64,000 nt of DNA from Defluviitaleaceae bacterium (GTDB lineage: Bacteria > Bacillota > Clostridia > Lachnospirales > WRAX01). The stretch lies in contig WQVZ01000001.1 of NCBI GenBank assembly GCA_009785595.1, forward strand, positions 149-64,148. The letters are read 5' to 3'. This document shows positions 3,773-33,414 of this stretch, one piece after another. Numbering within the stretch: position 1 is the stretch's first letter; every line of letters begins with the position of its first letter. Made by a program: the position numbers and the translations under genes. The notes beneath the pieces are model-generated. The model was not told the DNA's origin and searched no databases. It worked only from the letters and a program-made list of their open reading frames with translations.

Positions 3773-3937
3773 CCCTCCCACCAACCCGGCCCCATGACAG
3801 CAAAGCTGTCATGGGGCCGGGTTGGTGGGAGGGCCAGGGGGCCACTTGGGGGCCACCGCGGGCGAAGCCCGCGGTGGCCCCCAAGTGGCCCCCTGGCCCC
3901 AGATTTTTGATGGCCTTCGGCCATCAAAAATCTGGGG
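3773..3937. repeat. triple perfect-palindrome module 1
   Basis: H1 3773-3801/3805-3833 (29 bp, loop AAA). H2 3834-3863/3867-3896 (30 bp, loop GAA, centre GCGAAGC). H3 3897-3915/3919-3937 (19 bp, loop TTC). The hairpins abut with 0 nt between them and have no mismatches (checked by hand). The module lies between convergent genes. Confidence 0.95.
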
Positions 3938-4424
3938 CTTTTAAAAACTTGGTGTGCTTGAGTGCATATCCGGCGATAAGACCTACAAGCACACCAGTAA
4001 GTACTCCGGCTATAATCAGCACAGGAGCATAATAAAACAGGCCCGCGTTTTGCACAATAAGAGCAGCCACTACAATCTGTCCTATATTGTGAAAAACCCC
4101 ACCCCAAACACTTACACCAACCACACCAAAGATTTTCACCCTTTTGGCCAAAACCATGGCAGCATAACTTAAAATACCACCGGACAGACTGTAAGCTACG
4201 CTAAAAGGGGAACCAAAAAGCAACCCTATTGCTACTATGCGCAAGACAGATATGCCAAGAGCCGCTTTGGATCCCATGGCATAAAGGGCCATAACAACTA
4301 TAACATTAGCCAAGCCCAGCTTCACCCCGGGAACAGGTATAGGCATAGGGAAAAGTCTTTCTATATAGGCGGCCACCATAGCCAGCCCGCCCAATATGCC
4401 AAAATATGCTATCTTTTTTGCCAT
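3924..4424 (-). CDS. Gx transporter family membrane protein
   Basis: ORF-track 3924..4466 trimmed to ATG 4424, which has GGGAGAG upstream; the longer start lies inside palindrome module 2. The protein is multi-TM and Gly-rich and resembles the Gx transporter family usually paired with NusG_II proteins. The last codons and the stop lie in the right arm of module 1 hairpin 3. Confidence 0.72.
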   Translation of the reverse strand: MAKKIAYFGILGGLAMVAAYIERLFPMPIPVPGVKLGLANVIVVMALYAMGSKAALGISVLRIVAIGLLFGSPFSVAYSLSGGILSYAAMVLAKRVKIFGVVGVSVWGGVFHNIGQIVVAALIVQNAGLFYYAPVLIIAGVLTGVLVGLIAGYALKHTKFLKAPDF

Positions 4425-4460
4425 CGCGCTCTCCCATTGTTCCACTCTTTTTGTTGATTG

Positions 4461-4631
4461 CCTCAAGGCCGGTTCTACTGTTTCGCGAAGCGAAACAGTA
4501 GAACCGGCCTTGAGGCCTTAGCCCAACCAGAGTGCGCTTTGCGCACTCTGGTTGGGCTAAGGCCTCCCCCTCTCCTCCAGTCATCCCACACCCCCTTTGG
4601 GGGTGTGGGATGACTGGAGGAGAGGGGGAGG
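4461..4631. repeat. triple perfect-palindrome module 2
   Basis: H1 4461-4486/4490-4515 (26 bp, loop GAA, centre GCGAAGC). H2 4516-4537/4541-4562 (22 bp, loop TTT). H3 4563-4595/4599-4631 (33 bp, loop TTT). The hairpins abut and have no mismatches. The module sits between two co-oriented minus-strand genes. Confidence 0.95.
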
Positions 4632-4650
4632 CAAAATTTATATTGCTATA

Positions 4651-5007
4651 TCACGTGCCATTGCGTAATTCCACAATAACGCGGTTTGGCAGGCATGTTA
4701 TGGTTTGCCAAATATTTGAAATCGGCCCCATCCTTATACAATATTGGTCAGGGCAGTCTGCATAAACCATACGCACCCTGCCGCCGCTTATCATTATCTC
4801 ATTATGACCGCGCTCTGTTTTAATACGAAAAATCTCCCCGTCATTTCGCCTGATGTCCACAGCCAAAACCTCCACACCATCTACATGCACCGCCACAACA
4901 GACCCCTCACGTCCGCCTACAATAAGAAAAATAAAAATCAGAGATATGGCCAATAATATGAGTAGCACAATAAGTACCACATCTGCCCGCTTCAAAATCT
5001 CCGCCAC
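4651..5007 (-). CDS. NusG domain II-containing membrane-anchored protein
   Basis: 118 aa with a GTG start. N-terminal TM helix followed by ...CPDQYCIRMGPISNIWQTITCLPNRV, the Cys pattern of NusG_II (former DUF1312) proteins. Confidence 0.75.
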   Translation of the reverse strand: MAEILKRADVVLIVLLILLAISLIFIFLIVGGREGSVVAVHVDGVEVLAVDIRRNDGEIFRIKTERGHNEIMISGGRVRMVYADCPDQYCIRMGPISNIWQTITCLPNRVIVELRNGT

Positions 5008-5071
5008 TGTCGTATTTCCCCCAAGTTTTCATAAACTGATTATACCATACCACAACCCAAGGAGCTTTTCC

Positions 5072-5911
5072 ATGAAAAAATTTGGCCGCTTTCTGTATGC
5101 CCTATACGGTAAAATCAACGAAAATGAGATTTTGCCCCTGGCCACCCAACTTACCTATCGCCTGGTTTTCTCACTGTTCCCATTCATCATCTTTCTAATA
5201 TCCTTGGTAGGTTTTTTTGAAATAGACCCGGAATTTCTATTGGATGAAGTTTCCGGCCTTTTCCCTGCGCAAATAGCCCAGGTGATAAACGATGTTATAT
5301 ATGACGTGGTAGACACCCGCAACCCCAGCATAATGTCCACCAGCTTACTTTTTTATATTTTCACCGTGGCCAGCGGCTTTCGTGCTGTCATGCGAGGCAT
5401 ACACAAGGCCTATGATCAAGAAGACACCCGTAATGCCGTTGTGCGCTGGCTTTACTGTACCTTGCTGGTTATAGCTCTGGCTCTGGCTATTGTCTCTTCC
5501 TTGTTGGTTATCATTTTCGGCGACACCATCTACAGCCTTATTGACCGTTATTTCCACTTCAACGGCTTTTTTGTGGTAATCTTCGGCTTTACCGGGGTGT
5601 TAATAACCATAACCATAATGCTGGCTGTAATTATCCTCATTTATCGCCTATCTTACTCCAAAAAGCAGACCATAATATCCCTGCTGCCGGGTGCTATGTT
5701 TACCCTGGCCGTCTGGGCCATATCCTCTTCGGCCTTTAATTTCTGGGTCAATAACTTCTCGCGCCATTCCCTTATATACGGCTCTATCGCCAGCATTTTC
5801 ATTACCATGCTGTGGCTTAATATCATATCTGCCACAATTTTAATAGGGGCGCAGACCAATGCGTTACTAAGCGTTCATTCGGGCGACCGAGGACGGTCAC
5901 CCCTACAATGA
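5072..5911 (+). CDS. YihY/BrkB family membrane protein
   Basis: ORF-track 4853..5911 trimmed to ATG 5072, which is preceded by AAGGAG. Multi-TM with LTYRLVFSLFPFIIFLISL. The last ~10 codons are encoded by a REP-like hairpin (5881-5908). Confidence 0.8.
   Translation: MKKFGRFLYALYGKINENEILPLATQLTYRLVFSLFPFIIFLISLVGFFEIDPEFLLDEVSGLFPAQIAQVINDVIYDVVDTRNPSIMSTSLLFYIFTVASGFRAVMRGIHKAYDQEDTRNAVVRWLYCTLLVIALALAIVSSLLVIIFGDTIYSLIDRYFHFNGFFVVIFGFTGVLITITIMLAVIILIYRLSYSKKQTIISLLPGAMFTLAVWAISSSAFNFWVNNFSRHSLIYGSIASIFITMLWLNIISATILIGAQTNALLSVHSGDRGRSPLQ
5881..5908 (-). repeat. REP-like hairpin, family copy A1
   Basis: The minus strand reads TTGTAGGGGTGACCGTCCTCGGTCGCCC: an 8-bp stem with one mismatch and a 6-nt loop. 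It overlaps the 3' ends of the convergent yihY-like and comF-like genes. Confidence 0.8.
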
Positions 5912-6571
5912 CGCGACGGCAAAGACGATAAGGCTTACGGACTTTGCCCCGCTGGCTTTCAGCACCCCGACACATTCCGCTACCGTGGCCCCTGTGGTCA
6001 AAATATCATCCACCAGCACCACATCCCTACCCTCCACACAAAAGCCGTCTTTAAGGGCAAAAGCCCCCGCCACATTGGCGGCACGCTGGTGGGGATTAAG
6101 CTCAAACTGTTTTGCCGTGTCCCTTGTGCGCACCATGCCATCATAGGCAGGTAGAGCCATAGGGCCAGAAAGCTCCGCCGCCAGCAAGGCTGCCTGGTTA
6201 AAGCCTCTTTCCTTTATGCGTTTTGAATGCAATGGCACCGGCAGCAAAAAATCCGCATCGATTTTGCCAAAACGGCCAAAAATCAAACCAGCCATAGGGC
6301 GGGCCAGCACCCGCTTGCCTTCGTATTTATACCGAAAAACCGCATGGCGCACCGCCTCGGAATAATCACAAGCGGCGTAAATGCGGCAACCACCTTCGGG
6401 GGCTTTTGTCTCAACACGAGCAGCCATCTCGCAGTCAGCGCACGTAATTTCGGTGGGATTATCCAAAACTTTTCGGCAAAACAGACACTTGTTGGGAAAT
6501 ACCGCCCCATATACCATTTGAAGTGCCACCATTCCGGCGGTTTTTTTAAGCAAGAATTTATCATTCATCAC
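5903..6571 (-). CDS. comFC: ComF family protein (phosphoribosyltransferase domain)
   Basis: 222 aa. N-terminal CxxC...CxxC and C-terminal PRTase motif VVLVDDILTTGAT. The start overlaps the recD2 stop (ATGA). Confidence 0.85.
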   Translation of the reverse strand: MMNDKFLLKKTAGMVALQMVYGAVFPNKCLFCRKVLDNPTEITCADCEMAARVETKAPEGGCRIYAACDYSEAVRHAVFRYKYEGKRVLARPMAGLIFGRFGKIDADFLLPVPLHSKRIKERGFNQAALLAAELSGPMALPAYDGMVRTRDTAKQFELNPHQRAANVAGAFALKDGFCVEGRDVVLVDDILTTGATVAECVGVLKASGAKSVSLIVFAVASL

Positions 6572-8859
6572 ACATCACCATACATCTGCCGGTGTAGCCG
6601 CTCGATACGATATTTTAAGGCGGAATACCTCACACTTTCCCTCACATTGTCCACCATGCGGCGCAATGTACCCGCCACGCCCACAATAACCACCAGCTTT
6701 TTTGCCCGGGTTATAGCAGTGTATAATAAATTGCGGTTTAGCAACATGGGCGGTCCGCTGTGTATGGGCAAAACCACAATGTCATATTCCGATCCCTGGG
6801 ATTTGTGTATGGTTATAGCATATGCCAGCACCAACTCGTCCAGCTGGCTGGTTTCATAATCCACCAGCCTGTCGTCATCAAAGCGCACCTGCACAGCACC
6901 GGCGGTGTCGATGTGGGTTATTATCCCCTCGTCGCCGTTAAACATGCCGCAACCCTCTTCTGCCAAATTCCCCCTATCGTCCATAATACGCCACTGTATG
7001 TTGTAGTTATTTTTTATCTGCATCACTTTGTCTCCCTGGCGAAAAACAAAGCTGCCCATCTGCTTTTCCCCTTTGGCAAATGACGGCGGGTTAAGGGCCT
7101 CTTGCAGCAATATATTAAGATTTGCCACGCCCGCGGCAGACTTTCGCTGGGGCGTAAGCACCTGTATGTCCCGCATAACATCTACCGGCATAAACTTTGG
7201 CAGGCGGCTTGCGGCCAAATCTGCCACGGTGGCCACTGCGCGGTTTATGTCGTGTTCTTGTATAAAGAAAAAGTCCGAATCCTTTTCGTTAAGCATGGGG
7301 TAATCGCCACGATTAACACGATGGGCATTCATAACAATGGCACTTTCGGCACTTTGGCGAAAAATCTCATCCAAATACACCACCCGCACTTTGCCGCTTT
7401 CTATTACATCCCGCAACACATTACCCGCCCCCACCGACGGCAACTGGTTTACATCACCCACCAATATCAGCCGTGTGCCGCGTTTTATACTTTTTAACAG
7501 GCGGAACATCAGCATCACATCCACCATGGAGCTTTCGTCCACAATAACACAGTCCTCTTGTATCATCATGTCGTCGGGCAATTCTTCTTTAGACAGCGGC
7601 CTGTTGCTATCTGTCGTATGGATACCCAAAAGACGATGGATGGTAGACGCAGACATACCCGTGGTCTCGCTCATGCGCTTGGCCGCCCGCCCTGTTGGGG
7701 CGCACAACACAATACGCTGGCCCATTTTGCGCATAATGCGTATGATGGTATTTATGGTAGTTGTTTTGCCCGTACCCGGCCCGCCGGTTATTACCAACAC
7801 GCCATTGGTCAGGGCCTCTTGCACGGCGGTTTTTTGCAGGCGCGCTAGGGTTATGCCGGCTTCGCGCTCGGCTTCGGCTACGTCAGCTTCTACATCGCCT
7901 TGGTCGGTTAGGGCGGTGTTAAGCTCCAAAAGCTTCTTGGCAATATAAATTTCGCCATGGTAGTAGGCAGTAAGGTATATCACAATTTCGGTGTCGTCGT
8001 CAGAAGCCGGGCGATCAGGAACAATCGCCCCTACAATTTTATCCTGCTTGATATCTCCCGCCACTTGCATTTGCAACAGCTGGTTTTCTACCTCTGCCAT
8101 CTCCAAGGCAAGCAACCCCTGTGCTTTCTCCAAAAGCTGTGCCTTTGGCAAATACGTGTGCCCATCACCCAAAGCATCCGACAACACATACTTTACCCCC
8201 GCCCAAATGCGATTAGGTGAAAAATGAGGTATACCCGCCTTGACGGCAATAGCATCTGCAATTTTAAAACCTATGCCAAAAATATCCTCTGCCAGCACAT
8301 ATGGGTTGGTTTTTACCACGTCTATGGCGTGTATGCCATACCGCTTGCAAATTTTATCACTTTGGCCCACGGTAAGCCCCAGACCCTGCAAATACATCAT
8401 GGTATTGCGCTGGGCGGATTTTTCTATAAATTCCTTGCCAATATCCCGCGCCAGCTTCATGGTTATGCCTTTTATCTCTGACAGCCGCTCCGGCTCGTTT
8501 TCTATCACATCAAATGCCGCCAGGCCAAATTTGTCCACAATAAGCTTGGCCCGCTTGGCCCCAACGCCCTTAATAGCACCGCTGGCCAGGTATTTTTCCA
8601 TGCCGGACACGGTTTTGGGCATAATGCGCTCTATTGCCTGCACCTTAAACTGCTGGCCGTAGGTGGGGTGTACAACAAAAAGGCCCGTCAGCCTAACGTC
8701 CTCTCCCTCGTTAACCAGCGTGCCCGCCGTGCAGGTAATTTCCTGCGTTCCATCGCCCTCGTCCAACTCTCGGTTTATCACAAAAACAGAAAAGCCCGTC
8801 GCGTCGCTTTGGTATATTATGTTTTCCACATTACCTTCAATGGTTTCGATTTGCTCCAT
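6568..8859 (-). CDS. recD2: RecD2-type SF1B ATP-dependent DNA helicase
   Basis: 763 aa. Walker A ITGGPGTGKTT, LILVGDVNQLPSVGAG and C-terminal AITIHKSQGSE. Confidence 0.92.
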   Translation of the reverse strand: MEQIETIEGNVENIIYQSDATGFSVFVINRELDEGDGTQEITCTAGTLVNEGEDVRLTGLFVVHPTYGQQFKVQAIERIMPKTVSGMEKYLASGAIKGVGAKRAKLIVDKFGLAAFDVIENEPERLSEIKGITMKLARDIGKEFIEKSAQRNTMMYLQGLGLTVGQSDKICKRYGIHAIDVVKTNPYVLAEDIFGIGFKIADAIAVKAGIPHFSPNRIWAGVKYVLSDALGDGHTYLPKAQLLEKAQGLLALEMAEVENQLLQMQVAGDIKQDKIVGAIVPDRPASDDDTEIVIYLTAYYHGEIYIAKKLLELNTALTDQGDVEADVAEAEREAGITLARLQKTAVQEALTNGVLVITGGPGTGKTTTINTIIRIMRKMGQRIVLCAPTGRAAKRMSETTGMSASTIHRLLGIHTTDSNRPLSKEELPDDMMIQEDCVIVDESSMVDVMLMFRLLKSIKRGTRLILVGDVNQLPSVGAGNVLRDVIESGKVRVVYLDEIFRQSAESAIVMNAHRVNRGDYPMLNEKDSDFFFIQEHDINRAVATVADLAASRLPKFMPVDVMRDIQVLTPQRKSAAGVANLNILLQEALNPPSFAKGEKQMGSFVFRQGDKVMQIKNNYNIQWRIMDDRGNLAEEGCGMFNGDEGIITHIDTAGAVQVRFDDDRLVDYETSQLDELVLAYAITIHKSQGSEYDIVVLPIHSGPPMLLNRNLLYTAITRAKKLVVIVGVAGTLRRMVDNVRESVRYSALKYRIERLHRQMYGDV

Positions 8860-8871
8860 AGTCAGTCCTTA

Positions 8872-8898
8872 TTGTAGAGGCGATCGTCCCGGTCGCCC
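8872..8898 (+). repeat. REP-like hairpin, family copy A2
   Basis: TTGTAGAGGCGATCGTCCCGGTCGCCC: a 7-bp stem including one G:T pair. It lies between the methyltransferase stop and the recD2 start and is antisense to local transcription. Confidence 0.7.
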
Positions 8899-9669
8899 TC
8901 ATAGTTTCCGTGCCTTAAAACAAACCGACAGCGGCAGCATCCTGGCCTTTTTGGACATATAGTTGTCGTCATCCAACGCCTTCATTGTTTCGTCATCGGT
9001 TTGCTCCACCATTTGCTCCATCACAAAGCCCGCCTTGGCCAGGGCATTGATATATGTGGATATTTTGCGGTTGCATAGCAATACTTCCGTACCATCAATG
9101 GGCAATTTAAACCAGCTTTCGTCAAAATAACTTTTGCCAAAAGCCATCACGTCGTTTTCTATCACAATTTTCCGTTCCTCACACGACCATGCCGCACAAT
9201 AATTAAGCGTATGGTGCCAGCTAAATATAAACACACCGTCTTTTTTCAGATAGGACACTATTTTGTTAAAGGTGCCTTGCAGGTCTGTTGTCCAGCCAAT
9301 GCCGTATATGGAATATACATAGTCAAAATAATCGGTGGGTATGTCTGCATCCGCTTCCATGGGCGCGCATATAAATTTTGCCGTGTGGCCATGTTCTTGC
9401 AGATATGCCCGGGCTAATTCTATCTGACTATTGGAAATATCCAACCCCCATAATTCCCCGGCACCTCTATCAGCGTGATATTTTAGCGAATGGCCGCTGC
9501 CGCAGCAAATCTCCAACAATTTTTTGTCGAAAACATCGCCAAACAAGCCCAGGTCATCTTCTGTTGGGAATTTCATGCCGTATATTGGTAATGCTGTCCT
9601 TCTGTCAAGCCAAGCATCTGCATGGGTATCCCAATATGTCTTGTTTGTTTTTAATATATTTTTGTCCAC
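8899..9669 (-). CDS. class I SAM-dependent methyltransferase
   Basis: 256 aa with a GTG start. SAM-binding motif I LLEICCGSGHS. Confidence 0.8.
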   Translation of the reverse strand: MDKNILKTNKTYWDTHADAWLDRRTALPIYGMKFPTEDDLGLFGDVFDKKLLEICCGSGHSLKYHADRGAGELWGLDISNSQIELARAYLQEHGHTAKFICAPMEADADIPTDYFDYVYSIYGIGWTTDLQGTFNKIVSYLKKDGVFIFSWHHTLNYCAAWSCEERKIVIENDVMAFGKSYFDESWFKLPIDGTEVLLCNRKISTYINALAKAGFVMEQMVEQTDDETMKALDDDNYMSKKARMLPLSVCFKARKL

Positions 9670-9675
9670 AAATTA

Positions 9676-10674: not shown

Positions 10675-10772
10675 GCAAAATTCTCCTTATGCGGGACGTT
10701 TATACCTCAATTATACAGTATGTCGGAAAAAAATGAAAGATGTTTTTTGCAACGGCGTTCCGGCCTTCGTCG

Positions 10773-10791
10773 GGGCGACCTGTGGTTGCCC
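10773..10791 (-). repeat. REP-like hairpin, diverged copy
   Basis: GGGCGACC tgt GGTTGCCC: an 8-bp stem with one G:T pair and a 3-nt loop. On the minus strand it begins 3 nt after the aroA stop. Confidence 0.55.
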
Positions 10792-10794: not shown

Positions 10795-12027
10795 TTATCC
10801 CAGTCCCTCCAACACCCCAAAAAACCCCGGAAAACTAACACCAACACAGCCCGCATCTTGTATAACACTATGACCCCGGGCCATCAACGCCGCCACAGCC
10901 AGCGCCATGGCCACCCTATGGTCTTTATGGCTATCAACAGCCGCGCCGTACAAGGGATGCCCCCCATGTATAATCATACCATCCTGTCTGGCCTCTATCT
11001 TAGCTCCCATCTTGCCTAGTTCTCCCGTCATGGCCGCTATGCGGTTGCTTTCCTTTACGGCTAATTCTCCCGCATCTTGTATGATGGTCGCGCCTTCGGC
11101 AAAAAGTGCCGCCACCGCAAAAATCGGCACTTCGTCAATCATACGTGGAACAACATCCCCCGCTACAACCACGCCTTTAAGCACCGATTTTTTCACAAAA
11201 ATATCTCCAACTTCCTCGCCGCACACCACCCTGTGGTTTTTTACCTCAATATGTGCCCCCATACGCCCCAAAGCATCCAAAAGCCCTGTGCGCGTGGGGT
11301 TTACACCCACATTTTCTATGGTCAATCCATCCTCTGCCATCAACACCCCGGCCACAATAAAAAACGCCGCCGAAGAAAAATCACCAGGCACAATAATCTC
11401 CCGCCCTTGCAGATTTCTCCCGCCCATATATTCCATCATAATCTCCGTATGGTTGCGGGTCAGGCCGTATCCCGGCTCCTCTATCCTGGTCTCGCCCTTG
11501 GCATACAGTCCCGCCAGCATTATAGCCGACTTCACCTGGGCACTGTTTATAGGCATTTTGTAATGTATGCCCTGCAATTGTACCCCCGTAATACGTATGG
11601 GCGCAAAATTTCCCTCAATTTTCGCCCCCATTTGCGTCAGGGGCATAACAACCCTGTCCATAGGCCGCCGGCGTATGGACTCGTCCCCATCCAGCACAGA
11701 ATCAAACCGCTGCCCCGCTAACAATCCTGTCAGCAACCTAAGGGTGGTGCCGGAATTCCCCACATCCAGCACACCCTGTGGCGGTCTCATGCTTCGCAAT
11801 CCACGGCCCGTTATACGGGCCGTATTACCATGTATATTAACATCCACACCTAGTTGCCCCAGACAACGGGCGGTGGCCAAACAATCTTCCCCGGGCAAAA
11901 ATCCGGCAATATTCGTCTCGCCCCAGGCAATTGCACCCAAAATAAGTGCCCTATGGGATATAGACTTATCCCCCGGCACCCTGATGCGCCCACCTATGGT
12001 CTTTTTCGGTAAAATTTTCACATTCAT
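10795..12027 (-). CDS. aroA: 3-phosphoshikimate 1-carboxyvinyltransferase (EPSP synthase)
   Basis: ORF-track 10795..12120 trimmed to MNVKILPKK... at 12027, the usual distance before the conserved PGDKSISHRALILGA. There is no SD, and a TGcTATAAT box ends 6 nt upstream (see the promoter feature). Confidence 0.92.
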   Translation of the reverse strand: MNVKILPKKTIGGRIRVPGDKSISHRALILGAIAWGETNIAGFLPGEDCLATARCLGQLGVDVNIHGNTARITGRGLRSMRPPQGVLDVGNSGTTLRLLTGLLAGQRFDSVLDGDESIRRRPMDRVVMPLTQMGAKIEGNFAPIRITGVQLQGIHYKMPINSAQVKSAIMLAGLYAKGETRIEEPGYGLTRNHTEIMMEYMGGRNLQGREIIVPGDFSSAAFFIVAGVLMAEDGLTIENVGVNPTRTGLLDALGRMGAHIEVKNHRVVCGEEVGDIFVKKSVLKGVVVAGDVVPRMIDEVPIFAVAALFAEGATIIQDAGELAVKESNRIAAMTGELGKMGAKIEARQDGMIIHGGHPLYGAAVDSHKDHRVAMALAVAALMARGHSVIQDAGCVGVSFPGFFGVLEGLG

Positions 12028-12142: not shown

Positions 12143-14209
12143 ATGAAGGCTTATGCACCGGATGCCATTAGAAACGTAGCAATTTTGGGCCACACAGGGG
12201 CCGGAAAAACCACAATTGCCGAAGCCGCACTCAACATCTGCGGCATTACCAGCCGTTTTGGCAAGGTAGACGAAGGCAACACCGTAAGCGACTACGACCC
12301 CGAGGAAATTAAAAGAAAAATTTCTATAAGCGCATCGCTCATTCCTATAGAATGGAAAAGCAGCAAAATCAACTTTATAGACACACCGGGCTTTTTTGAT
12401 TTTGCCGGCGAAGTGCGTCAGGCTCTTGCCGTGGCAGATTTAGCACTTATCGTTATCAATGCCAAAAGCGGCATAGAAGTTGGCACAGAAAAAGCGTGGG
12501 ATTATGCCACCGAAGCCGGCCTGCCAAAAATGATATTCATTAACAACATGGATGACGAAAACGTAGACTTTGACGCCCTTATCACCTCCCTCAACGAAAA
12601 ATTCGGCAAAAGCATCGCCCCAATACAGGCCCCCATCAAAGAAGGTGGCAAATTTGTGGGTTATGCCAATGCTCTTAAACGCGAAGGCCGCAAATACGGC
12701 GCTAAAGGCGTGGAGGCTTGCCCTATCCCTGCTGACCTTAATGACGAAGTAGAGCATCTCCACGACATGATAAAAGAAGCCGTGGCAGAAACCGACGAAA
12801 ACCTGATGGAAAAATTCTTTGACGGCGAAGATTTTACCGTGGAAGAAATGCAAAACGGCCTTAAAGCCGGCCTGGTGGATGCTTCTGTTACCCCTGTTGT
12901 TGTTGGTGCTGCCCTGCACTCCATGGGCGTTGGTGTTTTGATGGATTATTTGGTGGACCTTTGCCCATCCGCTTCCGTACACAAACCCTTGCCCGCCAAA
13001 GATGCCAAAACCGAAGAAGCCGCGCAATTACCCTGTAAAGAAGACGGCCCATTTGTGGCATTTGTTTTTAAAACCATCGCCGACAGCTTTGGTCGCCAGT
13101 CCGTCTTCCGCGTAATCTCCGGCACCCTTAAAAAAGAAACCCCCCTTTACAATGCCAGCAAAGACAGCACAGAAAAAATAGCCCAGCTTTTTGTCCTGCG
13201 CGGCAAAGAACAAATTGCCGTAAACGAGCTTAAAGCCGGCGATATTGGCGCCATACCAAAGCTGGCCAACACCAGCACATCTGACACCCTATGCACCAAA
13301 GAAAAACCATATATCATCCAAGAAATCAACTTCCCGCAACCCCTGTACTCCATGGGCATCGTCCCTAAAAACAAAGGCGACGAGGATAAAATATCCCAAG
13401 GCATTGCAAAATTCCTTGAAGAAGACAAAACCATTAAATTCCAGGTAAACAGCGAAACCAAACAAAGCGTAATATCCGGCCTGGGCGACGGCCACCTGGA
13501 CGTGCTTGTAAACAAAATGAAAACCCGCAATAAAGTGGAAGTAGAGCTTACCCCGCTGGTTGTACCTTATCGCGAAATGATAAAAGGCAAATCTGACGTG
13601 CAAGGCCGCCACAAAAAGCAATCCGGCGGCTCCGGCCAGTTTGGTGACGTTAAAATGAAATTCGAGCCCTCCGGCGACCTCACCCAACCCTATGTTTTCG
13701 AGCAGCAAATCTTCGGCGGCTCCGTACCGCGCAACTTCTGGCCTGCCGTCGAAAAAGGTATTCGCGAAAGCTGCAAAACCGGCCCGCTGGCAGGATACCC
13801 CGTGGTTGGTCTTAAAGCCATACTTTACGATGGCTCTTACCATGCCGTAGACTCTAACGAGCTGTCCTTTAACCTGGCGGCCCAGCTGGCCTTTAAAGAT
13901 GGCTTTATGAAAGCAAAACCCGTTATTCTGGAACCCATCATGAAAGTAGAAATATATGTGCCTGACGAATACACCGGCGACATTATGGGCGACATCTCCA
14001 AACGTGGCGGCCGCGTGCTGGGTATGACCAAAACCGGTGCCAGACAACAAATATCCGCCCAGGTGCCACATTCTAAAATGACGTCATACTCCATTGACCT
14101 GCGCTCCATAACCCAGGGCCGCGGTGACTATACCATGGAATTTGACCAATACGAAGAGGCCCCCGCCGAAGAAGCCGCAAGAGTAATAGAAGCCCGCAAA
14201 AAAGAATAA
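12143..14209 (+). CDS. elongation factor G family GTPase (EF-G paralog, outside the str operon)
   Basis: 688 aa. G1 AILGHTGAGKTT and G3 DTPGFFDF, with EF-G domain order through the C-terminus. AGGAGG lies upstream. Confidence 0.9.
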   Translation: MKAYAPDAIRNVAILGHTGAGKTTIAEAALNICGITSRFGKVDEGNTVSDYDPEEIKRKISISASLIPIEWKSSKINFIDTPGFFDFAGEVRQALAVADLALIVINAKSGIEVGTEKAWDYATEAGLPKMIFINNMDDENVDFDALITSLNEKFGKSIAPIQAPIKEGGKFVGYANALKREGRKYGAKGVEACPIPADLNDEVEHLHDMIKEAVAETDENLMEKFFDGEDFTVEEMQNGLKAGLVDASVTPVVVGAALHSMGVGVLMDYLVDLCPSASVHKPLPAKDAKTEEAAQLPCKEDGPFVAFVFKTIADSFGRQSVFRVISGTLKKETPLYNASKDSTEKIAQLFVLRGKEQIAVNELKAGDIGAIPKLANTSTSDTLCTKEKPYIIQEINFPQPLYSMGIVPKNKGDEDKISQGIAKFLEEDKTIKFQVNSETKQSVISGLGDGHLDVLVNKMKTRNKVEVELTPLVVPYREMIKGKSDVQGRHKKQSGGSGQFGDVKMKFEPSGDLTQPYVFEQQIFGGSVPRNFWPAVEKGIRESCKTGPLAGYPVVGLKAILYDGSYHAVDSNELSFNLAAQLAFKDGFMKAKPVILEPIMKVEIYVPDEYTGDIMGDISKRGGRVLGMTKTGARQQISAQVPHSKMTSYSIDLRSITQGRGDYTMEFDQYEEAPAEEAARVIEARKKE

Positions 14210-14683: not shown

Positions 14684-15814
14684 CTACGACAGCGGATGTT
14701 CAGTAAATCTAAAAGCCAGATATGCGGTAAAAGGCACATCATCAGGAGCCTCGGAACCAGGCGCAGCCATAATGTGCACAAATTCGCCCACTTCTTCCGG
14801 GGTAAGCTGCACTGTAAAGCTGGCACCCGGAGCCACTGTGACCACTACAGGGTCTGGGCCATCGGCAAGCACAAAAAGATCGAGATAATAATCACTGGTG
14901 TTAACCAGGAAGATATTTAGGCGCGCGCCTTCAATTTCGCTAAACAGCATCACCATGGCATATAGTGCCTCAATGTCCATGGCAAAACGTTCTTCAAGAT
15001 TGTATTCGTCAATTTCAAAAGTCTCGATGAAGATAAGGTCAAGCGCGGTGCTAACAGCCGTAAGTGCGCCAAGCATCTCCACAATATCATCCATATGCTC
15101 CATCATCACTTCGGCCATAAACCCACCAATAAGCTCGCCCAGCAGCTCGAAACGCTCGTTGGTGTCCAGAGCCAGCAGTTCTTCCACGGTTCCTTCGCCA
15201 AAGAAGTAATCCATTTCGGCAAACAGGCTGTATTCAAATTCTTCACTTGCCAGATCGCTCATTATTTCTTCGACAAGCTCTTCAATGGTCAGACCGTCTT
15301 CAAGAGCAGCTTCCACAATAGACCCTATCAAAAGCTGCATAAACCAGCCGTCCATTATGTCCAACATAATTTCTTCGGTCAAAAGTTCTGTTATCTCAGC
15401 CATAACAGGTATTTCGGCCAAAATACCCAAAACGCGCTCCGCCGAAACAGCCGGAAGGCCATCAAGCTCCATGCCCATCTCTTCAAAAAGACCGGCAAAT
15501 AACTCCTGCACCCACTCCATTTGTTGGGCCATAGACATGTCTTCCAGGTCGGCTATCATTTCCGCAAGCTCTTCGTCAAGATCTTCCAGCAGCAAGGCTT
15601 CCAGCTCTTCCATGGTTTCCACGCCATGCATTTCCAATAACATTTGGTTCATGGCTTCTTCAAGCTCTGTTGCTCCATCGGCAAAACCCGCATCCATGGC
15701 CAAGGCAAAGCGTTCTTGAGGCGACACGCCGTCATAATCCACCGGCACGGACAAAGTCACCAAAGACCCCATTAAAAGAACCACCAGCAAAAATTGCAGC
15801 ATTCTGTCCATCAT
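14684..15814 (-). CDS. hypothetical secreted hyper-acidic, lysine-free protein
   Basis: ORF-track 14684..15865 trimmed to ATG 15814, with GGAGG 11 nt upstream. Signal-peptide-like MMDRMLQFLLVVLLMGSLVTLSVPV. By my count it has 84 D/E, 7 R and 0 K in 376 aa. No family recognised. Confidence 0.6.
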   Translation of the reverse strand: MMDRMLQFLLVVLLMGSLVTLSVPVDYDGVSPQERFALAMDAGFADGATELEEAMNQMLLEMHGVETMEELEALLLEDLDEELAEMIADLEDMSMAQQMEWVQELFAGLFEEMGMELDGLPAVSAERVLGILAEIPVMAEITELLTEEIMLDIMDGWFMQLLIGSIVEAALEDGLTIEELVEEIMSDLASEEFEYSLFAEMDYFFGEGTVEELLALDTNERFELLGELIGGFMAEVMMEHMDDIVEMLGALTAVSTALDLIFIETFEIDEYNLEERFAMDIEALYAMVMLFSEIEGARLNIFLVNTSDYYLDLFVLADGPDPVVVTVAPGASFTVQLTPEEVGEFVHIMAAPGSEAPDDVPFTAYLAFRFTEHPLS

Positions 15815-27734: not shown

Positions 27735-29048
27735 ATGTCAGACAACACCCAAACACCCGCCGTTTTGGAGCATATCGAAGAAAATTTAGTCAAAATTACC
27801 CTTACCATTTCGCCCCAGCGCTTTGAAGAGGGCCTACACCACGCCTATTTAAAAAATAGAAACCAAATAGCCTTGCCCGGCTTTAGAAAAGGCCGCGCAC
27901 CACGTAAAATGATAGAAATGCAATTTGGCCGTGAGATTTTTCACGAAGACGCTCTGGACTTTGTTTTTCCCGATGCATACGATGCCGCTATTACAGAGCA
28001 TGACCTGGACGTTGTGTCTGCACCCCAAGTAGACTTTGAAGAAAAAGACGGCGGAGCCATTATATTTGCGGAGGTACACACCCGCCCGCAGCCCGATATT
28101 GAGGATTACACCGGCATAACATATACAAAAACCGATATAGAAGTAACCGACGAAGAAATTGACACGGAAATTGACAGAGACAGACAAAAAAACGCCAGAG
28201 TAACCACCGTAACAGACCGTGCCGTGCAAGACAGCGACATTGCCGTTATCGACTTTGAAGGTTTTATTGACGACGTGGCCTTTAACGGCGGCAAAGGCGA
28301 AAAATTTGAGCTAGCAATAGGCTCAAAATCCTTCATAGATGGTTTTGAAGAGCAAATTATCGGCAAAAATATCAATGACGAATTTGATGTAAGTGTTTCC
28401 TTCCCCACGGAATATCATGCCGAGGAGCTGGCCGGCAAACCAGCTGTCTTTAAGGTAAAAATTCACGAAATTAAGCACAAAGAGCTGCCCGTGGCCGATG
28501 ACGAATTTGCCCAGGAAGTATCAGAATTTAATACCCTGGCGGAATATAAAGCCGACATAAAGGAAAAAATAACCAAGCAAAAAACAATGGCGGCTGACAG
28601 AGAAATAGAAAATCAATTGGTAAAGGGCCTGTGCGACAGGATAACCGTCAACATACCCAAGCCCATGATAGATAACGAAACAGACCGTCTGCTACGTGAA
28701 TTTGCTAACAGAATCCAATCTCAGGGCATGGATTTTGGCAAATATATGGAAATGACAGGCATGGACGTGACCAATTTGCGTAATATGTATCAAGAGCAGG
28801 CCAATATTAATGTAACAAGCCGCCTGGCCATTGATGCCGTGGTGCGCAAAGAAGTCGTAGAGATAAGCGACGAAGAATATAGCGCAGAAATTGACCGCCT
28901 GGCCAAAATGTATAGCATCCAGCGTGAAAAACTGGAGGAATCCATAGGCGTGGACGAAGCCGCGGCCCTTAGACTGGACATAAAGGCCCGCAAAGCTCTT
29001 GATATGGTAAAAGCGGCGGCGGTTGCCGTTGCAGAAGAAGCGAAATAA
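27735..29048 (+). CDS. tig: trigger factor
   Basis: 437 aa. N-terminal ribosome-binding GFRKGRAPRKMIE and a central FKBP-type PPIase region. tig-clpP-clpX synteny. Confidence 0.95.
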   Translation: MSDNTQTPAVLEHIEENLVKITLTISPQRFEEGLHHAYLKNRNQIALPGFRKGRAPRKMIEMQFGREIFHEDALDFVFPDAYDAAITEHDLDVVSAPQVDFEEKDGGAIIFAEVHTRPQPDIEDYTGITYTKTDIEVTDEEIDTEIDRDRQKNARVTTVTDRAVQDSDIAVIDFEGFIDDVAFNGGKGEKFELAIGSKSFIDGFEEQIIGKNINDEFDVSVSFPTEYHAEELAGKPAVFKVKIHEIKHKELPVADDEFAQEVSEFNTLAEYKADIKEKITKQKTMAADREIENQLVKGLCDRITVNIPKPMIDNETDRLLREFANRIQSQGMDFGKYMEMTGMDVTNLRNMYQEQANINVTSRLAIDAVVRKEVVEISDEEYSAEIDRLAKMYSIQREKLEESIGVDEAAALRLDIKARKALDMVKAAAVAVAEEAK

Positions 29049-29060
29049 GGGAGGTTTGAT

Positions 29061-29675
29061 ATGGATAACTTCGATTATAAAAACAGAGTGGATATGGCCC
29101 TGGTGCCTATGGTTGTGGAGCAATCAAACCGGGGCGAGCGTGCCTACGACATATATTCCCGCCTGCTAAAAGACGGCATAATCTTTTTAGGCGATCCTGT
29201 TATGGACGTCACCGCCAATTTGGTGGTGGCCCAGATGTTGTTTTTGGCGGCAGAATATCCCGACCGAGACATTAGCTTCTACATCAACAGCCCCGGCGGC
29301 TCTGTGTCTGCCGGCATGGCTATTTATGATACCATGCAGTTTATAAAACCCGATGTTTCCACCATTTGCGTGGGCATGGCGGCGTCTATGGGGGCGTTTT
29401 TGCTGGCGGGCGGCACAAAGGGCAAGCGTTTTGCTCTGCCCAATGCAGAAATTATGATACACCAGCCATCCGGCGGTGCCCGCGGCCAGGCTTCCGATAT
29501 ACAGATCCATGCCGAACACATCTTAAAAACCAAAGAAAAACTGAACAAAATGCTGGCAGAGGCAACAGGCCAGCCCTATAAAAAAATTGTGCAAGACTCT
29601 GACCGAGACAACTTTATGTCTGCCGAGGAGGCCAAGGCCTACGGTCTGATAGACGAAATTATTACCAAAATATAA
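29061..29675 (+). CDS. clpP: ATP-dependent Clp protease proteolytic subunit
   Basis: 204 aa. [27 protein letters not shown], catalytic Ser in [11 protein letters not shown] and His in IMIHQP. GGGAGG lies upstream. Confidence 0.96.
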
Positions 29676-30127
29676 TGCTGATAAAAAGGCATTTTTTTGC
29701 AGCAGTTGTTGTGTTGTTTATTTTTGCGGCCTGCACAACAGCATCGGATATTTATATTGAGCCTGACCCAATACCAACCTCGGCACCACCAAACACTGTA
29801 TTTAACGGACCCATAGAGGCATTTGCCGCCGGAAGAGAAGCCAGCTTTATATTGCGTCCCGACGGCACTTTATGGGCCTGGGGCTGGAATAGCTACGGAC
29901 AAGTCGGAAATGGACAGGTTGATTATTTACAAACGGATTCAGGCCACATGACCAACCCAAATCCCACAATGATAATGGAAAATGTTGCCCATGTCTCGGC
30001 AGGAGATGGGCACGTGCTGGCTATGACAACAGACGGCCGCCTTTGGGCCTGGGGAAACAACAATAGCGGCCAGCTTGGAGACGGCACGCAAGATAATAGG
30101 TTTTTTCCAGTTCTGATTGTCGAATAA
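29675..30127 (+). CDS. small RCC1-repeat lipoprotein
   Basis: 150 aa. Signal peptide with a lipobox-like FAAC. Two RCC1-type repeats ([15 protein letters not shown] and [15 protein letters not shown]). The ATG overlaps the clpP TAA (TAATG). Confidence 0.7.
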
Positions 30128-30155
30128 AACGATTGCAATATTAAGGAGGATTTAC

Positions 30156-31433
30156 GTGTCAAAAGACAAGGATGACGAAAGACAGGTGTTTTGCAGTTTT
30201 TGCGGCAAGCCCAGGGAAAACAACCGGCGCTTTGTGGCCGGCCCCGGCGGCGTGTTTATTTGCAACGAATGTATTGACCTGTGCAATGATATATTTTATG
30301 ACAGCCCCACGGAATATGAGCCCGAAGGGGACGAGGACTACAAAATATACAAACCCAAGGAGATTTGCGCCTATTTGGACCAATACGTAATAGGCCAATA
30401 CGCGGCTAAAAAAGCTCTGTCCGTGGCGGTTTATAACCACTATAAGCGCATTGTAAAACGAGAGCAGGAAGAAAACGCCGGGGTAGAGCTGCAAAAAAGC
30501 AATGTGCTGCTGCTGGGCCCAACGGGCGTGGGCAAAACCTTTTTGGCTCAAACCCTGGCCCGCTTGCTTGATGTACCCTTTGCCGTGGCCGACGCCACCA
30601 GTCTCACAGAGGCCGGATACGTGGGCGAAGATGTAGAAAATATCCTGCTGCGATTGATACAAGCCGCCGATGGTGATGTACACCGGGCAGAACGGGGCAT
30701 CATATATATCGACGAAATTGACAAAATAGCCAGAAAGTCCGAAAACCCCTCTATTACCCGAGATGTTAGCGGTGAAGGGGTACAGCAGGCCCTGCTTAAA
30801 ATTTTGGAAGGCACGGTGGCATCCGTACCACCTCAGGGTGGCCGCAAGCATCCCCACCAGGAATTTATACAGATGGACACCACCAACATCCTCTTCATCT
30901 GTGGCGGTGCTTTTGACGGCATTGACAAAATCATCGAACAACGTCTTAACAAAAAAATCATAGGCTTTGGGGCAGAATTTCGCGACAAAAACGACAAGGC
31001 CACAGATGCACTGTTAAGCCAAGTAATCACCAAAGATTTGCAGAAATTCGGCCTTATCCCGGAGATTATCGGTCGTCTGCCCATAATTGTGTCTTTGGAT
31101 TCTCTGGACGAGCAAGCCCTAATATCTATCCTTACAGAGCCTAAAAACGCCCTTATCAAACAGTATCAGCATCTGTTCTCTTTAGATGATGTGGTGCTGG
31201 AATTTGACGAAGAAGCCATTGCTACCTCTGCCAAATTAGCCATCGAAAGAAAAATGGGCGTGCGGGGTCTGCGCTCTGTTATAGAGGCCTTTATGATAGA
31301 TATTATGTACGAAATACCCTCTGTAGAAAATATCGAAAAGGTGGTTGTAACCCAAGACACTGTGGAAAGAACCGCCCCGGCAAAAATCATATACAAGGCA
31401 AAAGAGGACGAAACACCCAAAGAAGCATCTTAA
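30156..31433 (+). CDS. clpX: ATP-dependent Clp protease ATP-binding subunit ClpX
   Basis: Start set to GTG 30156, 6 nt after AAGGAGG. Zinc finger CSFCGK...CNEC and Walker A GPTGVGKT. Confidence 0.96.
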
Positions 31434-31449
31434 TAACATCATATACCAA

Positions 31450-31483
31450 TTGCAGGGGCGACCGTCCTCGGTCGCCCGTTTTT
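31450..31483 (+). terminator. clpX intrinsic terminator, formed by REP-like copy A4
   Basis: TTGCAGGGGCGACCGTCCTCGGTCGCCC: a perfect 8-bp stem and a 6-nt loop, followed by GTTTTT. Confidence 0.7.
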
Positions 31484-31501
31484 ACTTAGGGAGGGGACAA
31501 T

Positions 31502-33148
31502 ATGAAAGAAAATACACCAAGCAGTTTTATACACCATGCTATTTCAGAAGACCTTGGAGACAACACCAACCGGCTTATAACCAGATTTCCTCCCGAGCCC
31601 GCCGGATATCTCCATATAGGCCACGCAAAGGCTATTTGCATAAATTTTGGCCTGGCCGAACATTATGGCGGCCTTTGCAACCTGCGCTTTGACGAGACCG
31701 ACCCAACCAAAAAAGACATGGAGTACTACGTAGAATCCATCAAAGACACCATACGTTGGCTGGGCTTTCAATGGAACGAGCTTTGCTATGCTTCCAATTA
31801 CTTTGAGCAATTTTATGAATATGCAGTGCTGCTGATTAAAAAAGGTGTGGCCTATGTTTGTGACCTTTCTGCCGAGGAAACGCGTCAATATCGCGGCACC
31901 TTAAACGAGCCCGGCAAAAACAGCCCGTATCGCAACAGAAACATAGACGAAAATCTGGATTTATTCGAAAAAATGAAAGCCGGAGAGTTCCCCGATGGTG
32001 CGCGAACCCTTAGGGCAAAAATAGATATGGCCAGCCCAAACATAAACATGCGTGACCCTATAATATACCGCATAATTCACGCTCCTCATTACAATACCGG
32101 TGACAAGTGGTGCGTATATCCAACATACGACTATGCCCATCCCCTGGAAGACGCCATCGAGGGTGTGACCCATTCCCTATGCGGTGTGGAATTTGAAGAC
32201 CACCGCCCGCTGTATGACTGGTTTGTAAACCAAATTGGTTTTGACCCCGCGCCGCGTCAAATAGAATTTGCCGAGCTGCATCTTTCCAACACTGTTTTAG
32301 GCAAGCGTCACATCCGTAAGCTCATTGAAGACGGAATTGCAGACGGATGGGACGACCCGCGGCTTATGACTCTGCCAGGTTTGCGCCGCCGGGGCTATAC
32401 CCCAACGGCTATACGTGATTTTATCGAGCGCATTGGCCTTAGCAAGGCACAAAGCACTGTTGATATTGGTTTTCTGGAGCACTGCCTGCGGGAGGACATA
32501 AGTCTGTCCTCCAAGGTTGTAATGGCTGTGCTGGATCCCATCAAGCTAATTATCACAAATTATCCCGAAAGCCAAACAGAAATGGTAGAAATGCCTAATA
32601 ATCCCAAAAATCTCGACCTAGGCACGCGGCAAATGCCCTTCTCCCGTGAAGTTTATATCGAGCGCAGTGACTTTGAAGAAATCGCGCCGCCAAAATATCA
32701 CAGGCTCTATCCCGGCAACGAAGTGCGACTTGCGGGAGCATATTTTGTGACATGTACGGATTTTGTAAAAGATGAGTCCGGGCGGATTGTGGAGGTTCAT
32801 GCTACATATGACCCGGCTACAAAAAGCGGTTCCGGCTTTAGCGAGCGTAAAGTAAAAGGCACCATACATTGGGTAAGTTGTGCCCAGGCCGTCAAAATCC
32901 GCTGTAATTTATATGATTATCTGTTTTTTGACGACGATACCCAGGAATCTGGCTTTCGCTTCAATGAAAATTCTCTTGTGGTAGCAGAAAATGCCGTGGC
33001 CGAGCCATCTATAATAAATGCCGGGCAAGAAGACCGCTTCCAGTTTATGCGCAATGCATATTTTTGCCTGGACAGCAAAACGTCATCTCCGAACAACCCG
33101 GTATTTAACCGCATCGTAGAAATAAAAAGCTCTTATAAGCCAACATAA
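31502..33148 (+). CDS. glnS: glutamine--tRNA ligase
   Basis: 548 aa. Class I HIGH motif (YLHIGHAKA), with the GlnRS catalytic and anticodon-binding regions collinear. GGGAGGGG lies upstream. Confidence 0.95.
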   Translation: MKENTPSSFIHHAISEDLGDNTNRLITRFPPEPAGYLHIGHAKAICINFGLAEHYGGLCNLRFDETDPTKKDMEYYVESIKDTIRWLGFQWNELCYASNYFEQFYEYAVLLIKKGVAYVCDLSAEETRQYRGTLNEPGKNSPYRNRNIDENLDLFEKMKAGEFPDGARTLRAKIDMASPNINMRDPIIYRIIHAPHYNTGDKWCVYPTYDYAHPLEDAIEGVTHSLCGVEFEDHRPLYDWFVNQIGFDPAPRQIEFAELHLSNTVLGKRHIRKLIEDGIADGWDDPRLMTLPGLRRRGYTPTAIRDFIERIGLSKAQSTVDIGFLEHCLREDISLSSKVVMAVLDPIKLIITNYPESQTEMVEMPNNPKNLDLGTRQMPFSREVYIERSDFEEIAPPKYHRLYPGNEVRLAGAYFVTCTDFVKDESGRIVEVHATYDPATKSGSGFSERKVKGTIHWVSCAQAVKIRCNLYDYLFFDDDTQESGFRFNENSLVVAENAVAEPSIINAGQEDRFQFMRNAYFCLDSKTSSPNNPVFNRIVEIKSSYKPT

Positions 33149-33154
33149 ACATCC

Positions 33155-33178
33155 ACCGGCCGAATAGGCCGGTTTTTT
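33155..33178 (+). terminator. glnS intrinsic terminator
   Basis: ACCGGCC gaata GGCCGGT followed by TTTTT. Confidence 0.8.
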
Positions 33179-33230
33179 ATTTGGATAAAATCTTGCCCAT
33201 TAGAACAGACTATTTTATAACTTTATAAGT

Positions 33231-33414
33231 GGCCCACACTCCACTCCCACCCACCCATTTGGCGGCAAAGCCGCCAAATGGGTGGGTGGGAGTGGAGTGT
33301 GGGCCTGGGGCCGGAGCCCTGGGAGCCGCTGGGGCGCGTAGCGCCCCAGCGGCTCCCAGGGCTCCGGCCCCAGGCCCCGTGGAGAGCAAGCCTACGGCTT
33401 GCTCTCCACGGGGC
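33231..33414. repeat. triple perfect-palindrome module 4
   Basis: H1 33231-33266/33270-33305 (36 bp, loop AAA). H2 33306-33337/33341-33372 (32 bp, loop GTA, centre GCGTAGC). H3 33374-33392/33396-33414 (19 bp, loop TAC). No mismatches. There is one unpaired g between H2 and H3. Confidence 0.95.

Follow-up and report, generated by a model that had tools for sequence, protein, structure and literature searches.

How can long palindromes stay flawless, side by side in sets of three, when no sequence family unites them? This question was raised by a 64,000-nt stretch of DNA from a Defluviitaleaceae bacterium (NCBI GenBank assembly GCA_009785595.1, contig WQVZ01000001.1, positions 149 to 64,148, forward strand), called the window below. 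The window was found to contain 12 perfect inverted repeats, which are all of those with arms of at least 12 nt and which lie in four blocks of three, designated modules M1 to M4 (Table 1). The comparison covered about 73 kb of the host genome, together with about 120 kb of sequence belonging to close relatives. The modules are much longer than, and distinct from, the ordinary terminators of this genome. We consider it a serious, if by no means assured, possibility that they are hypertrophied clusters of extragenic palindromes, akin to repetitive extragenic palindromes (REP) and bacterial interspersed mosaic elements (BIME), with arms that may be kept identical by intrastrand template switching seeded at R-N-A triloops.

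Complementarity of the arms was 100% in 12 of 12 inverted repeats, and the unpaired centre measured exactly 3 nt in each. Scanning of the window revealed no further perfect hairpin of at least 12 bp; its perfect GC-rich hairpins formed two size classes of 7-10 bp and 19-50 bp, with none in between. The hairpins of the modules spanned 41-103 nt, and no G-T pair occurred in their 371 pairs. An earlier note on this DNA had described the 12 mismatch-free triloop hairpins in four triplets and had put the G+C content of the arms at 71%. Both observations were reproduced, with a measured value of 72% against 48.5% for the window. The stem lengths given there (29/30/19 for M1, and so on) hold as a non-overlapping partition of the minimum free energy (MFE) fold, whereas the maximal arms are longer (Table 1). 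Nor do the hairpins merely touch, as had been stated: neighbours in each module have 3-5 nt in common, since the same foot word, with alternating orientation, recurs in all three hairpins (M1 CCC/GGG/GCCC; M2 GCCTC/GAGGC; M3 TGCC/GGCA; M4 GGCCC/GGGCC/GCCC). The modules folded as predicted, with MFE values of -180 to -254 kcal/mol per module for RNA parameters and -112 to -160 kcal/mol for DNA parameters.

Every loop was closed by a 5'-C..G-3' pair (12/12), and the next pair was G-C in 9 of 12 hairpins. All 12 centres had the form [G/C]C-NNN-G[C/G]. The loops read R-N-A on one strand, which could be either of the two, namely AAA in seven hairpins, GAA in three and GTA in two. The centres GCGAAGC (twice) and GCGTAGC (once) were present as noted earlier. 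They match DNA mini-hairpins of the d(GCGAAGC) type, in which a C-G pair closes a GNA triloop and which are exceptionally stable; this type is a biophysical motif and no genetic element, and 7 of the 12 module loops are AAA/TTT, not GNA. The order of the hairpins was fixed in each module: a C-first hairpin (skew of the 5' arm -0.5 to -0.8) was followed by a G-first hairpin with the highest G+C content and then by an unskewed one. Through this order, a G-rich core of 60-80 nt falls on the sense strand of the upstream gene. Among the 12 hairpins, a T-run on the 3' side was found at M1-H3 only (TTTT).

Mirrored differences in hairpins of relatives

The relatives compared were Defluviitaleaceae with GlnRS identities of 75-79% in a star-like pattern. 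At the M4 site, relative L163 carries a single 17-bp perfect hairpin with the loop GAA (11712-11748). In L172, a 25-bp hairpin lies 37 nt after glnS, and the first bases of the next hairpin stand at the contig end. Alignment of M4-H3 (GCCCCGTGGAGAGCAAGCC) with the 17-bp hairpin of L163 (GCCCGGTGCGGCAAGCC) gave 15 identities, two substitutions and two 1-nt gaps (p = 0.0005 by shuffling). M4-H1 and the first hairpin after the GlnRS gene of L172 were similar despite large indels (p = 0.001 by shuffling). In both pairs every difference has its exact complement in the opposite arm, and all four hairpins are perfect (an irregularity in L172 is considered below). A change in one arm that returns as the exact reverse complement in the other, indels and multi-base changes included, is the signature of template switching, and both homologous pairs carry it. 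The pairs display the pattern of an inverted repeat maintained by template switching; the process itself is what we infer from that pattern.

Mirrored differences between related hairpins mean that perfection need not reflect youth. If the hairpins are orthologues that diverged in situ, perfection would have been maintained while the sequence drifted. On that condition, the recent origin considered in the earlier note is disfavoured, since related hairpins occupy the same site in genomes with GlnRS only about 75-77% identical. Active homogenisation of the arms, the other possibility named there, is backed by the mirrored differences: when orthologous sites were compared, as had been proposed, related arms differed and yet stayed perfect rather than showing ordinary mismatches. 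Mirrored indels are hard to obtain from independent mutation and selection. Among 15 long hairpins from three genomes (about 440 pairs) no G-T pair was found, whereas an ordinary terminator of the window (35053-35077) has one. The lack of wobble pairs, the R-N-A loop on either strand and the C..G closure in 12 of 12 hairpins point to a signature at the level of DNA rather than of RNA.

The proposed mechanism would start in single-stranded or extruded DNA with nucleation at the stable triloop (centre [G/C]C-RNA-G[C/G], d(GCGAAGC) type). The nascent strand would fold back and copy its own other arm (intrastrand template switching or quasipalindrome correction), and this copying would write a substitution or indel of one arm into the other and erase the asymmetry. 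The loop would be cut down to the steric minimum of 3 nt, and the stems would be able to lengthen. If copying ran past the foot of H2 by a few bases, the end of H1 and the start of H3 would become complementary, and the shared foot word and the overlap would result. As RNA, the modules would form very stable stacked hairpins that block 3' exonucleases, and also 5' decay where they form a leader; their long perfect duplexes would be substrates for RNase III, and read-through may be slowed. Inverted repeats can arise, be repaired and grow by template switching; quasipalindrome correction turns imperfect repeats into perfect ones, brings in several 'compensatory' base changes at a time and extends the arms (PMC8794818, PMC13100816, PMC7202029), which fits the mirrored changes seen here. 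It is known as sporadic mutation at scattered sites, not as standing upkeep of sets of 40-100-bp palindromes in a bacterial lineage.

All of this presupposes that the palindromes are genuine. Assembly or library artefacts such as fold-back chimeras have to be considered, as the sequences come from short-read metagenome assemblies throughout, palindromes are a known failure point of these, and contigs do break there. The close matches to the window all derived from metagenome assemblies or metagenome-assembled genomes, from samples that we take, by their codes, to be termite-gut metagenomes. In one source, the GlnRS encoded by the window is assigned to a Defluviitaleaceae metagenome-assembled genome (MCL2396463.1). 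An 87-kb MEGAHIT contig (k141; ENA sample ERZ27257300) with about 99.9% identity to the window (37 differences in 40.2 kb) has all four modules with lengths unchanged. Logan k=31 contigs (SRR10512955) are identical to the ERZ27257300 strain, not to the window. They run unbroken through M1-H1 (29-nt arms) and end at 3860 of the window, just ahead of the centre of M1-H2 (33-nt arms), and at 33260, just ahead of that of M4-H1 (36-nt arms). A k=31 graph has to stop where a real palindrome has arms exceeding k, and the breaks are exactly as this predicts. The window source, MEGAHIT k141 and Logan k31 agree base for base and represent at least two strains about 0.09% apart. Agreement of two strains and of three assemblers makes an artefact very unlikely. 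Moreover, the modules are internal, with syntenic genes on both sides, and homologous hairpins stand at corresponding sites of relatives. Fold-back chimeras hardly come into question any more, and the concern about artefacts voiced in the earlier note was thereby largely answered.

Table 1. Positions in the window and properties of the modules and their hairpins
Feature	Position	Strand	Properties
M1	3773..3938	+	three overlapping perfect palindromes; RNA MFE -181 kcal/mol
M1-H1	3773..3833		29-bp arms; loop AAA; 5' arm C-rich (G 4, C 17)
M1-H2	3831..3899		33-bp arms; centre GCGAAGC; 85% G+C; 9-nt direct repeat GGGGGCCAC twice inside, mirrored in both arms
M1-H3	3896..3938		20-bp arms; loop TTC; 55% G+C
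M2 (order inverted)	4460..4632	-	three hairpins
M2, first hairpin in module order	4562..4632		34-bp arms; + strand loop TTT; 5' arm C-rich (G 2, C 22)
M2, middle hairpin	4512..4566		26-bp arms; + strand loop TTT
M2, last hairpin in module order	4460..4516		27-bp arms; + strand centre GCGAAGC
M3	26305..26525	+	RNA MFE -254 kcal/mol
M3-H1	26305..26371		32-bp arms; loop TTT; 5' arm C-rich
M3-H2	26368..26470		50-bp arms; loop TTT; foot GGCACGAGC
M3-H3	26467..26525		28-bp arms; loop TTT
M4	33231..33414	+	three hairpins
M4-H1	33231..33305		36-bp arms; loop AAA; 5' arm C-rich
M4-H2	33301..33377		37-bp arms; centre GCGTAGC; 86% G+C
M4-H3	33374..33414		19-bp arms; loop TAC

Gene context and possible RNA functions

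The genes of the window are ordinary housekeeping genes (metK, recD2, mreB, a murA-like and a fusA-like gene, metG, prfA, tig-clpP-clpX, glnS, parAB, argS, recG, lepA and others). All 12 hairpins are intergenic, except that 15 nt of M1-H3 overlap a gene end. The distances from stop codon to module were 11, 19, 5 and 82 nt for M1, M2, M3 and M4, exactly as given earlier. A position just downstream of a stop codon, which the earlier note had assigned to all modules, applies to three of them; M4 lies 82 nt past the stop and behind a terminator.

M1 separates two convergent genes, a LytR-family gene (+, stop 3759-3761) and a HepS-I-like gene (-, 3924-4424), and M1-H3 contains the stop codon (3924-3926) and the last four codons of the latter. 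The terminal APDF and the stop of this HepS-I-like (Hpre_diP_synt_I) protein are encoded by the palindrome (3924-3938), and the C-terminal tail is variable across relatives. M3 occupies 221 of the 232 nt between the stops of the convergent genes for RidA (+, 26298-26300) and an M23 peptidase (-, 26533-26535). Since the flanking genes of M1 and M3 are convergent, the polarity of these two modules is undefined; the polarity relative to transcription that had been claimed for all four can be determined for two.

The other two modules lie between co-directional genes. M2 fills 173 of the 226 nt between a NusG_II-domain gene (-, stop 4651-4653) and the HepS-I-like gene (-, start 4424), which leaves 36 nt before the downstream start codon. 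This gene pair was adjacent and co-directional in 152 other loci, with gaps of mostly 19-90 nt. M4 is flanked by the GlnRS gene glnS (+, stop at 33148) and the YkuD gene ykuD (+, start 33441) and is placed between blocks conserved across relatives. It is preceded by the ordinary glnS terminator (33155-33173, followed by a T-run); its end is 26 nt from the ykuD start, and the ribosome-binding site (RBS) block GAAATGTGGTG, conserved in relatives, follows directly on its 3' side. No convincing or conserved promoter was recognised before M2 or M4, either by eye or by scanning. Expression of the gene downstream of M2 or M4 requires that the module either be read through by transcription or be part of a leader. 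A plain operon-end element does not describe the modules, and what the earlier note had deduced, an orientation-aware 3'-end element, is only partly borne out, since M2 lies inside a pair co-directional in 152 loci and M4 between a terminator and the RBS block of the next gene.

The same positions bear on the proposal that the modules are purpose-built RNA elements, that is, U-tract-independent terminators (bidirectional between convergent genes) and/or sites for RNase III or 3'-end protection, kept perfect by selection for RNA stability. Three of four modules begin 5-19 nt past a stop, M1 and M3 fill convergent gaps, and in L163 a hairpin exactly fills the gap between the RidA and M23 genes. 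M2, however, lies within a conserved co-directional pair with 36 nt and no evident promoter before the downstream gene, and a canonical terminator already precedes M4. Because of the positions of M2 and M4, the modules are unlikely to be efficient classical U-tract terminators. The extreme stability of the folds and a G-rich core in the sense orientation of the upstream gene would suit an RNA element; selection on RNA, on the other hand, tolerates G-U pairs and bulges, of which there were none in 371 pairs, and the orientation of the loops relative to transcription is not fixed. Triloops are not a preferred RNA loop, and bacterial perfect inverted repeats past gene ends mostly have spacers of 4-5 nt (PMC13155455).

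Two classes of terminators were compared in this respect. The classical intrinsic terminator, a short GC-rich stem with a U-tract directly behind it that closes a transcription unit, does not describe the modules: the T-run is confined to M1-H3, and a consensus terminator scan, which found ordinary T-run terminators elsewhere in the window, listed no module hairpin as terminator-like. Hairpin-cluster or 'I-shaped' terminators comprise at least two hairpins, separated by fewer than 15 nt and located no more than about 50 nt from the stop, with stems of mostly 4-14 bp, and have been proposed to act without a U-tract (Gupta and Pal 2021; PMC8355165). The modules resemble them in having several close hairpins shortly after a stop: the spacing agreed in 4/4 modules and the distance in 3/4. 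They differ in that the cluster stems are imperfect, with loops of 5-10 nt, whereas the module stems are perfect, triloop-capped and, at 19-50 bp, 2-5 times longer; 2/4 modules, moreover, do not stand at an operon end. Overall, a purpose-built RNA element is considered an unlikely explanation.

Further features of the window and of contig L176 were recorded. A thiamine pyrophosphate (TPP) riboswitch (36890-36993; Rfam RF00059, 66.8 bits) lies upstream of a ThiT/YuaJ-type thiamine transporter gene (37042-37710). A gene for a 150-aa RCC1-repeat protein (29675-30127) stands between clpP and clpX, which are directly adjacent in L163, L164 and L171. Between lepA and a radical-SAM hemW/hemN-like gene, four tandem perfect palindromes of 20-24 bp were found (56027-56131, corresponding to L176 16871-16975); their centres are GTTTAC or GTTAAC, as in TACGCTGCGTTAACGCAGCGTA, they are 5-7 nt apart, and they could be an operator array or another hairpin cluster. 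About 2.8 kb past the window end, a lone perfect hairpin of 19 bp, with a loop of 1 nt (CACAAATACCGGGCGGCCA G TGGCCGCCCGGTATTTGTG; L176 6239-6277), lies between a convergent histidine kinase gene and helix-turn-helix (HTH) gene; apart from it, the 9 kb of this genome outside the window contain no long perfect hairpin.

Possible kinship with REP-like hairpins and comparison with other repeats

A family of short REP-like hairpins was recognised in the window and in relatives, with GC stems of 8-9 bp, a loop AAA or ACA and a following CTAC(A/G/T), which reads as a GTAG foot on the opposite strand. Members in the window lie at 37717-37735, 46079-46097, 42803-42821 and 10773-10791, and the copies at 37717 and 46079 are identical (GGGCGGCAAAATGCCGCCC plus CTACA). 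In L174, five copies of GGGGCGAGC-ACA-GCTCGCCCC followed by TACGA (GTAG foot on the other strand) were found in 21 kb, among them those at 7357-7375, 15084-15102 and 15347-15365. The presence of this family across Defluviitaleaceae contigs suggests a RAYT-type system in the clade. At the M23 stop of L164, a 12-bp perfect hairpin has the stem and ACA loop of the REP-like family without the CTAC tail. The hairpin in the RidA/M23 gap of L163 (the M3 site) is single, perfect and 30 bp long, with the centre GCGTAGC; it retains the REP foot GGGCGAG/CTCGCCC and a TTAC tail and looks like a REP-like hairpin with an expanded interior. The foot of M3-H2 agreed with the REP-like foot GGGGCGAGC at 7/9 positions (p = 0.02). 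A link between modules and REP is suggestive on these grounds. The separation from REP/BIME drawn in the earlier note is sound in so far as the modules are distinct from the short REP-like hairpins of this genome, and was overstated in that the same sites of relatives hold GTAG-footed REP-like hairpins or multicopy clusters.

REPs are imperfect palindromes of 30-40 nt with a common consensus, a 5' GTAG, linkers and hundreds of copies, and TnpA-REP of Escherichia coli requires GTAG and a stem mismatch (PMC3333891). Like REP/BIME, the modules are GC-rich, strictly extragenic, located either at the 3' ends of genes or between genes that are transcribed together, and arranged head to tail, here as 12 hairpins in 4 clusters; short GTAG-footed hairpins occur in the same clade and window, and REP-like or multicopy hairpins at the M2 and M3 sites of relatives. 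Unlike REP/BIME, they have perfect arms of 19-50 bp (100% complementary, and with spans beyond 30-40 nt), overlap in place of linkers and always come in threes; they share no consensus within the 73 kb of this genome. Reading of both strands showed the flanks of 4/4 modules to lack a correctly placed GTAG or CTAC, and no RAYT (Y1 HUH) gene was found in the 73 kb.

The occupancy of the sites varied among relatives. The M4 site is empty in L164 and L165, with the conserved flanks present, and the M1 site is empty in L174. At the M2 site of L174 (NusG_II/HepS-I spacer, 13315-13424), five tandem perfect GC hairpins of 6-8 bp with loops of 3-4 nt were found. Units 1 and 2 of this cluster, GCCGGCTAAAGCCGGC and CCGACTGGAAGTCGG, recur in inverted form 4.7 kb away (8600-8638), upstream of a PFK gene, as a BIME-like multicopy element. 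No cluster was present at 160 HepS-I-like loci of more distant Clostridia (GTDB genomes and JGI metagenomes, 1.4 Mb, best identity 52-61%); these loci (about 1.4 Mb) contained four isolated perfect hairpins of at least 14 bp with a 3-nt loop. The closest MetK relatives, L173 and L175 (82% identity), are represented by short non-syntenic contigs, from which no site comparison was obtained. As judged from these sites, the modules may well be specific to the lineage, with short GC-rich hairpins or none at related sites of Defluviitaleaceae; this view is offered with some reserve.

Non-autonomous mobile palindromes could produce such a distribution. They would be moved or budded by a shape-recognising single-strand enzyme (e.g. 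RAYT/Y1-HUH), rebuilt from one arm each time, and landed beside or inside existing hairpins. Occupancy of the M4 site does not track GlnRS similarity, L163 being filled and its closest relative L164 empty; hairpins pile up side by side with a common foot word; the 30-bp hairpin of L163 resembles a palindrome inserted in the loop of a REP-like hairpin; and repeated site-specific insertion of related elements would account for related hairpins at the same sites. The GTAG-footed repeats suggest a possible RAYT in the clade, whereas the 73 kb of this genome hold no transposase or HUH gene, nor a reverse transcriptase or cas gene, and the modules have neither the GTAG nor the stem mismatch that the enzyme of E. 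coli needs (PMC3333891). Terminal inverted repeats of more than 3-5 nt, target duplications and GTAG/CTAC at the module feet are likewise missing. A movement of this kind is therefore given a low probability.

A mobile origin is further disfavoured by the lack of a sequence family. All-vs-all alignments of the arms, judged against shuffles, left no pair significant after correction for 210 tests; the 12 arms form no sequence family. The statement that the modules are defined by architecture and not by sequence was thus confirmed; that no arm resembles another holds statistically within the window, not for the hairpins of relatives at the same sites, which are significantly similar. A hidden arm family was considered and dropped: the similarities of M1H1 and M4H1 (p = 0.013) and of M2H1 and M3H1 (p = 0.06) were lost on multiple testing and mostly reflect C-rich composition. 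M2-H3 and a hairpin of L163 have GGCCTCAAG in common (p = 0.007 before multiple-test correction), which would favour mobility. A foreign or captured origin of the arms was rejected after exact IMG/VR searches with two long arms had given zero matches, and a local source after 12-mer matches elsewhere in the window proved to be at chance level (8 seen, about 5 expected). Growth of the arms by internal tandem duplication stayed a hint: repeated k-mers were enriched relative to mononucleotide shuffles (p = 0.014-0.03), but not relative to dinucleotide ones (p = 0.13-0.2). The inner arm and loop of M1-H1 (3790-3804) share an identical 15-nt stretch, CCCCATGACAGCAAA, with the coding region of an APH-like gene in L174 (15770-15784); as no hairpin stands at the latter position, the match is probably due to chance.

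Other repeat classes did not accommodate the modules. In contrast to miniature inverted-repeat transposable elements and insertion sequences, the module ends have only the 3-5-nt foot word in common; flanking direct repeats or target-site duplications were not found at 4/4 modules, and the window contains no similar copies. Clustered regularly interspaced short palindromic repeats (CRISPR) do not apply, as there is no direct repeat and each unit is its own inverted repeat. The covariance models of Rfam 15 matched no module, a check that the earlier note had suggested for the arms; the TPP riboswitch was the only match in the window. GC-rich hairpins of organelles (yeast mitochondrial GC clusters, double-hairpin elements, repetitive hairpins of sponges and placozoans) are likewise intergenic, lie in an AT-richer genome, are often tandem and turn over fast. 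They differ in being organellar and in forming recognisable sequence families, and to our knowledge they have not been described as perfect triplets. In the literature searched, no description of triplets of long perfect triloop-capped palindromes lacking a sequence family was found.

A more far-reaching reading takes the modules as sequence-independent, self-perpetuating palindromes that would be recognised by their shape (C-G-closed R-N-A triloop, long perfect stem) and lengthened and budded by an activity devoted to fold-back copying or nicking; they would be selfish or domesticated DNA of a new class, in which architecture rather than sequence is propagated. The order C-first/G-first/neutral would then give a polar function at gene boundaries. 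We regard this as distinctly improbable.

Weighing of template switching and meaning for the lineage

Several observations speak against REP/BIME-like clusters with arms kept identical by template switching. The L172 hairpin has a run-length bulge (C7/C8) near its tip, the lone irregularity in the homologous pairs. One of the 37 strain differences falls inside a module, a T to G change in M3-H2 (26406) that left its partner base as it was; about 0.7 such differences were expected by length. From this uncompensated single-nucleotide polymorphism and the bulge it follows that mismatches do arise. Regeneration of each hairpin from one arm during transposition would also give mirrored differences, and a process of mutation alone would not predict the fixed order of C-first, G-first and unskewed hairpins. 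The link to REP depends on short foot similarities (p = 0.02 for 7/9) and common sites. No source of the GC-rich arm sequence was found in the window and no viral match in IMG/VR for two arms; internal tandem duplication of the arms is weakly supported, a hint at most. Finally, every sequence derives from metagenome assemblies.

The palindromes explain why assemblies of such genomes are fragmented at specific intergenic sites. If arm maintenance by template switching is the true explanation, this lineage has preserved entire sets of faultless palindromes, each 40-100 bp long, for a long stretch of evolution, and templated correction from arm to arm, so far studied as rare mutations in reporter genes, would be a standing evolutionary force in a bacterium. 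REP-like hairpins could then escape recognition as a sequence family. The modules go unnoticed by repeat finders, by Rfam and by terminator scans alike. With three stacked perfect hairpins within an operon (M2) and in a 5' leader (M4), these modules are strong candidates for the control of mRNA stability or processing.

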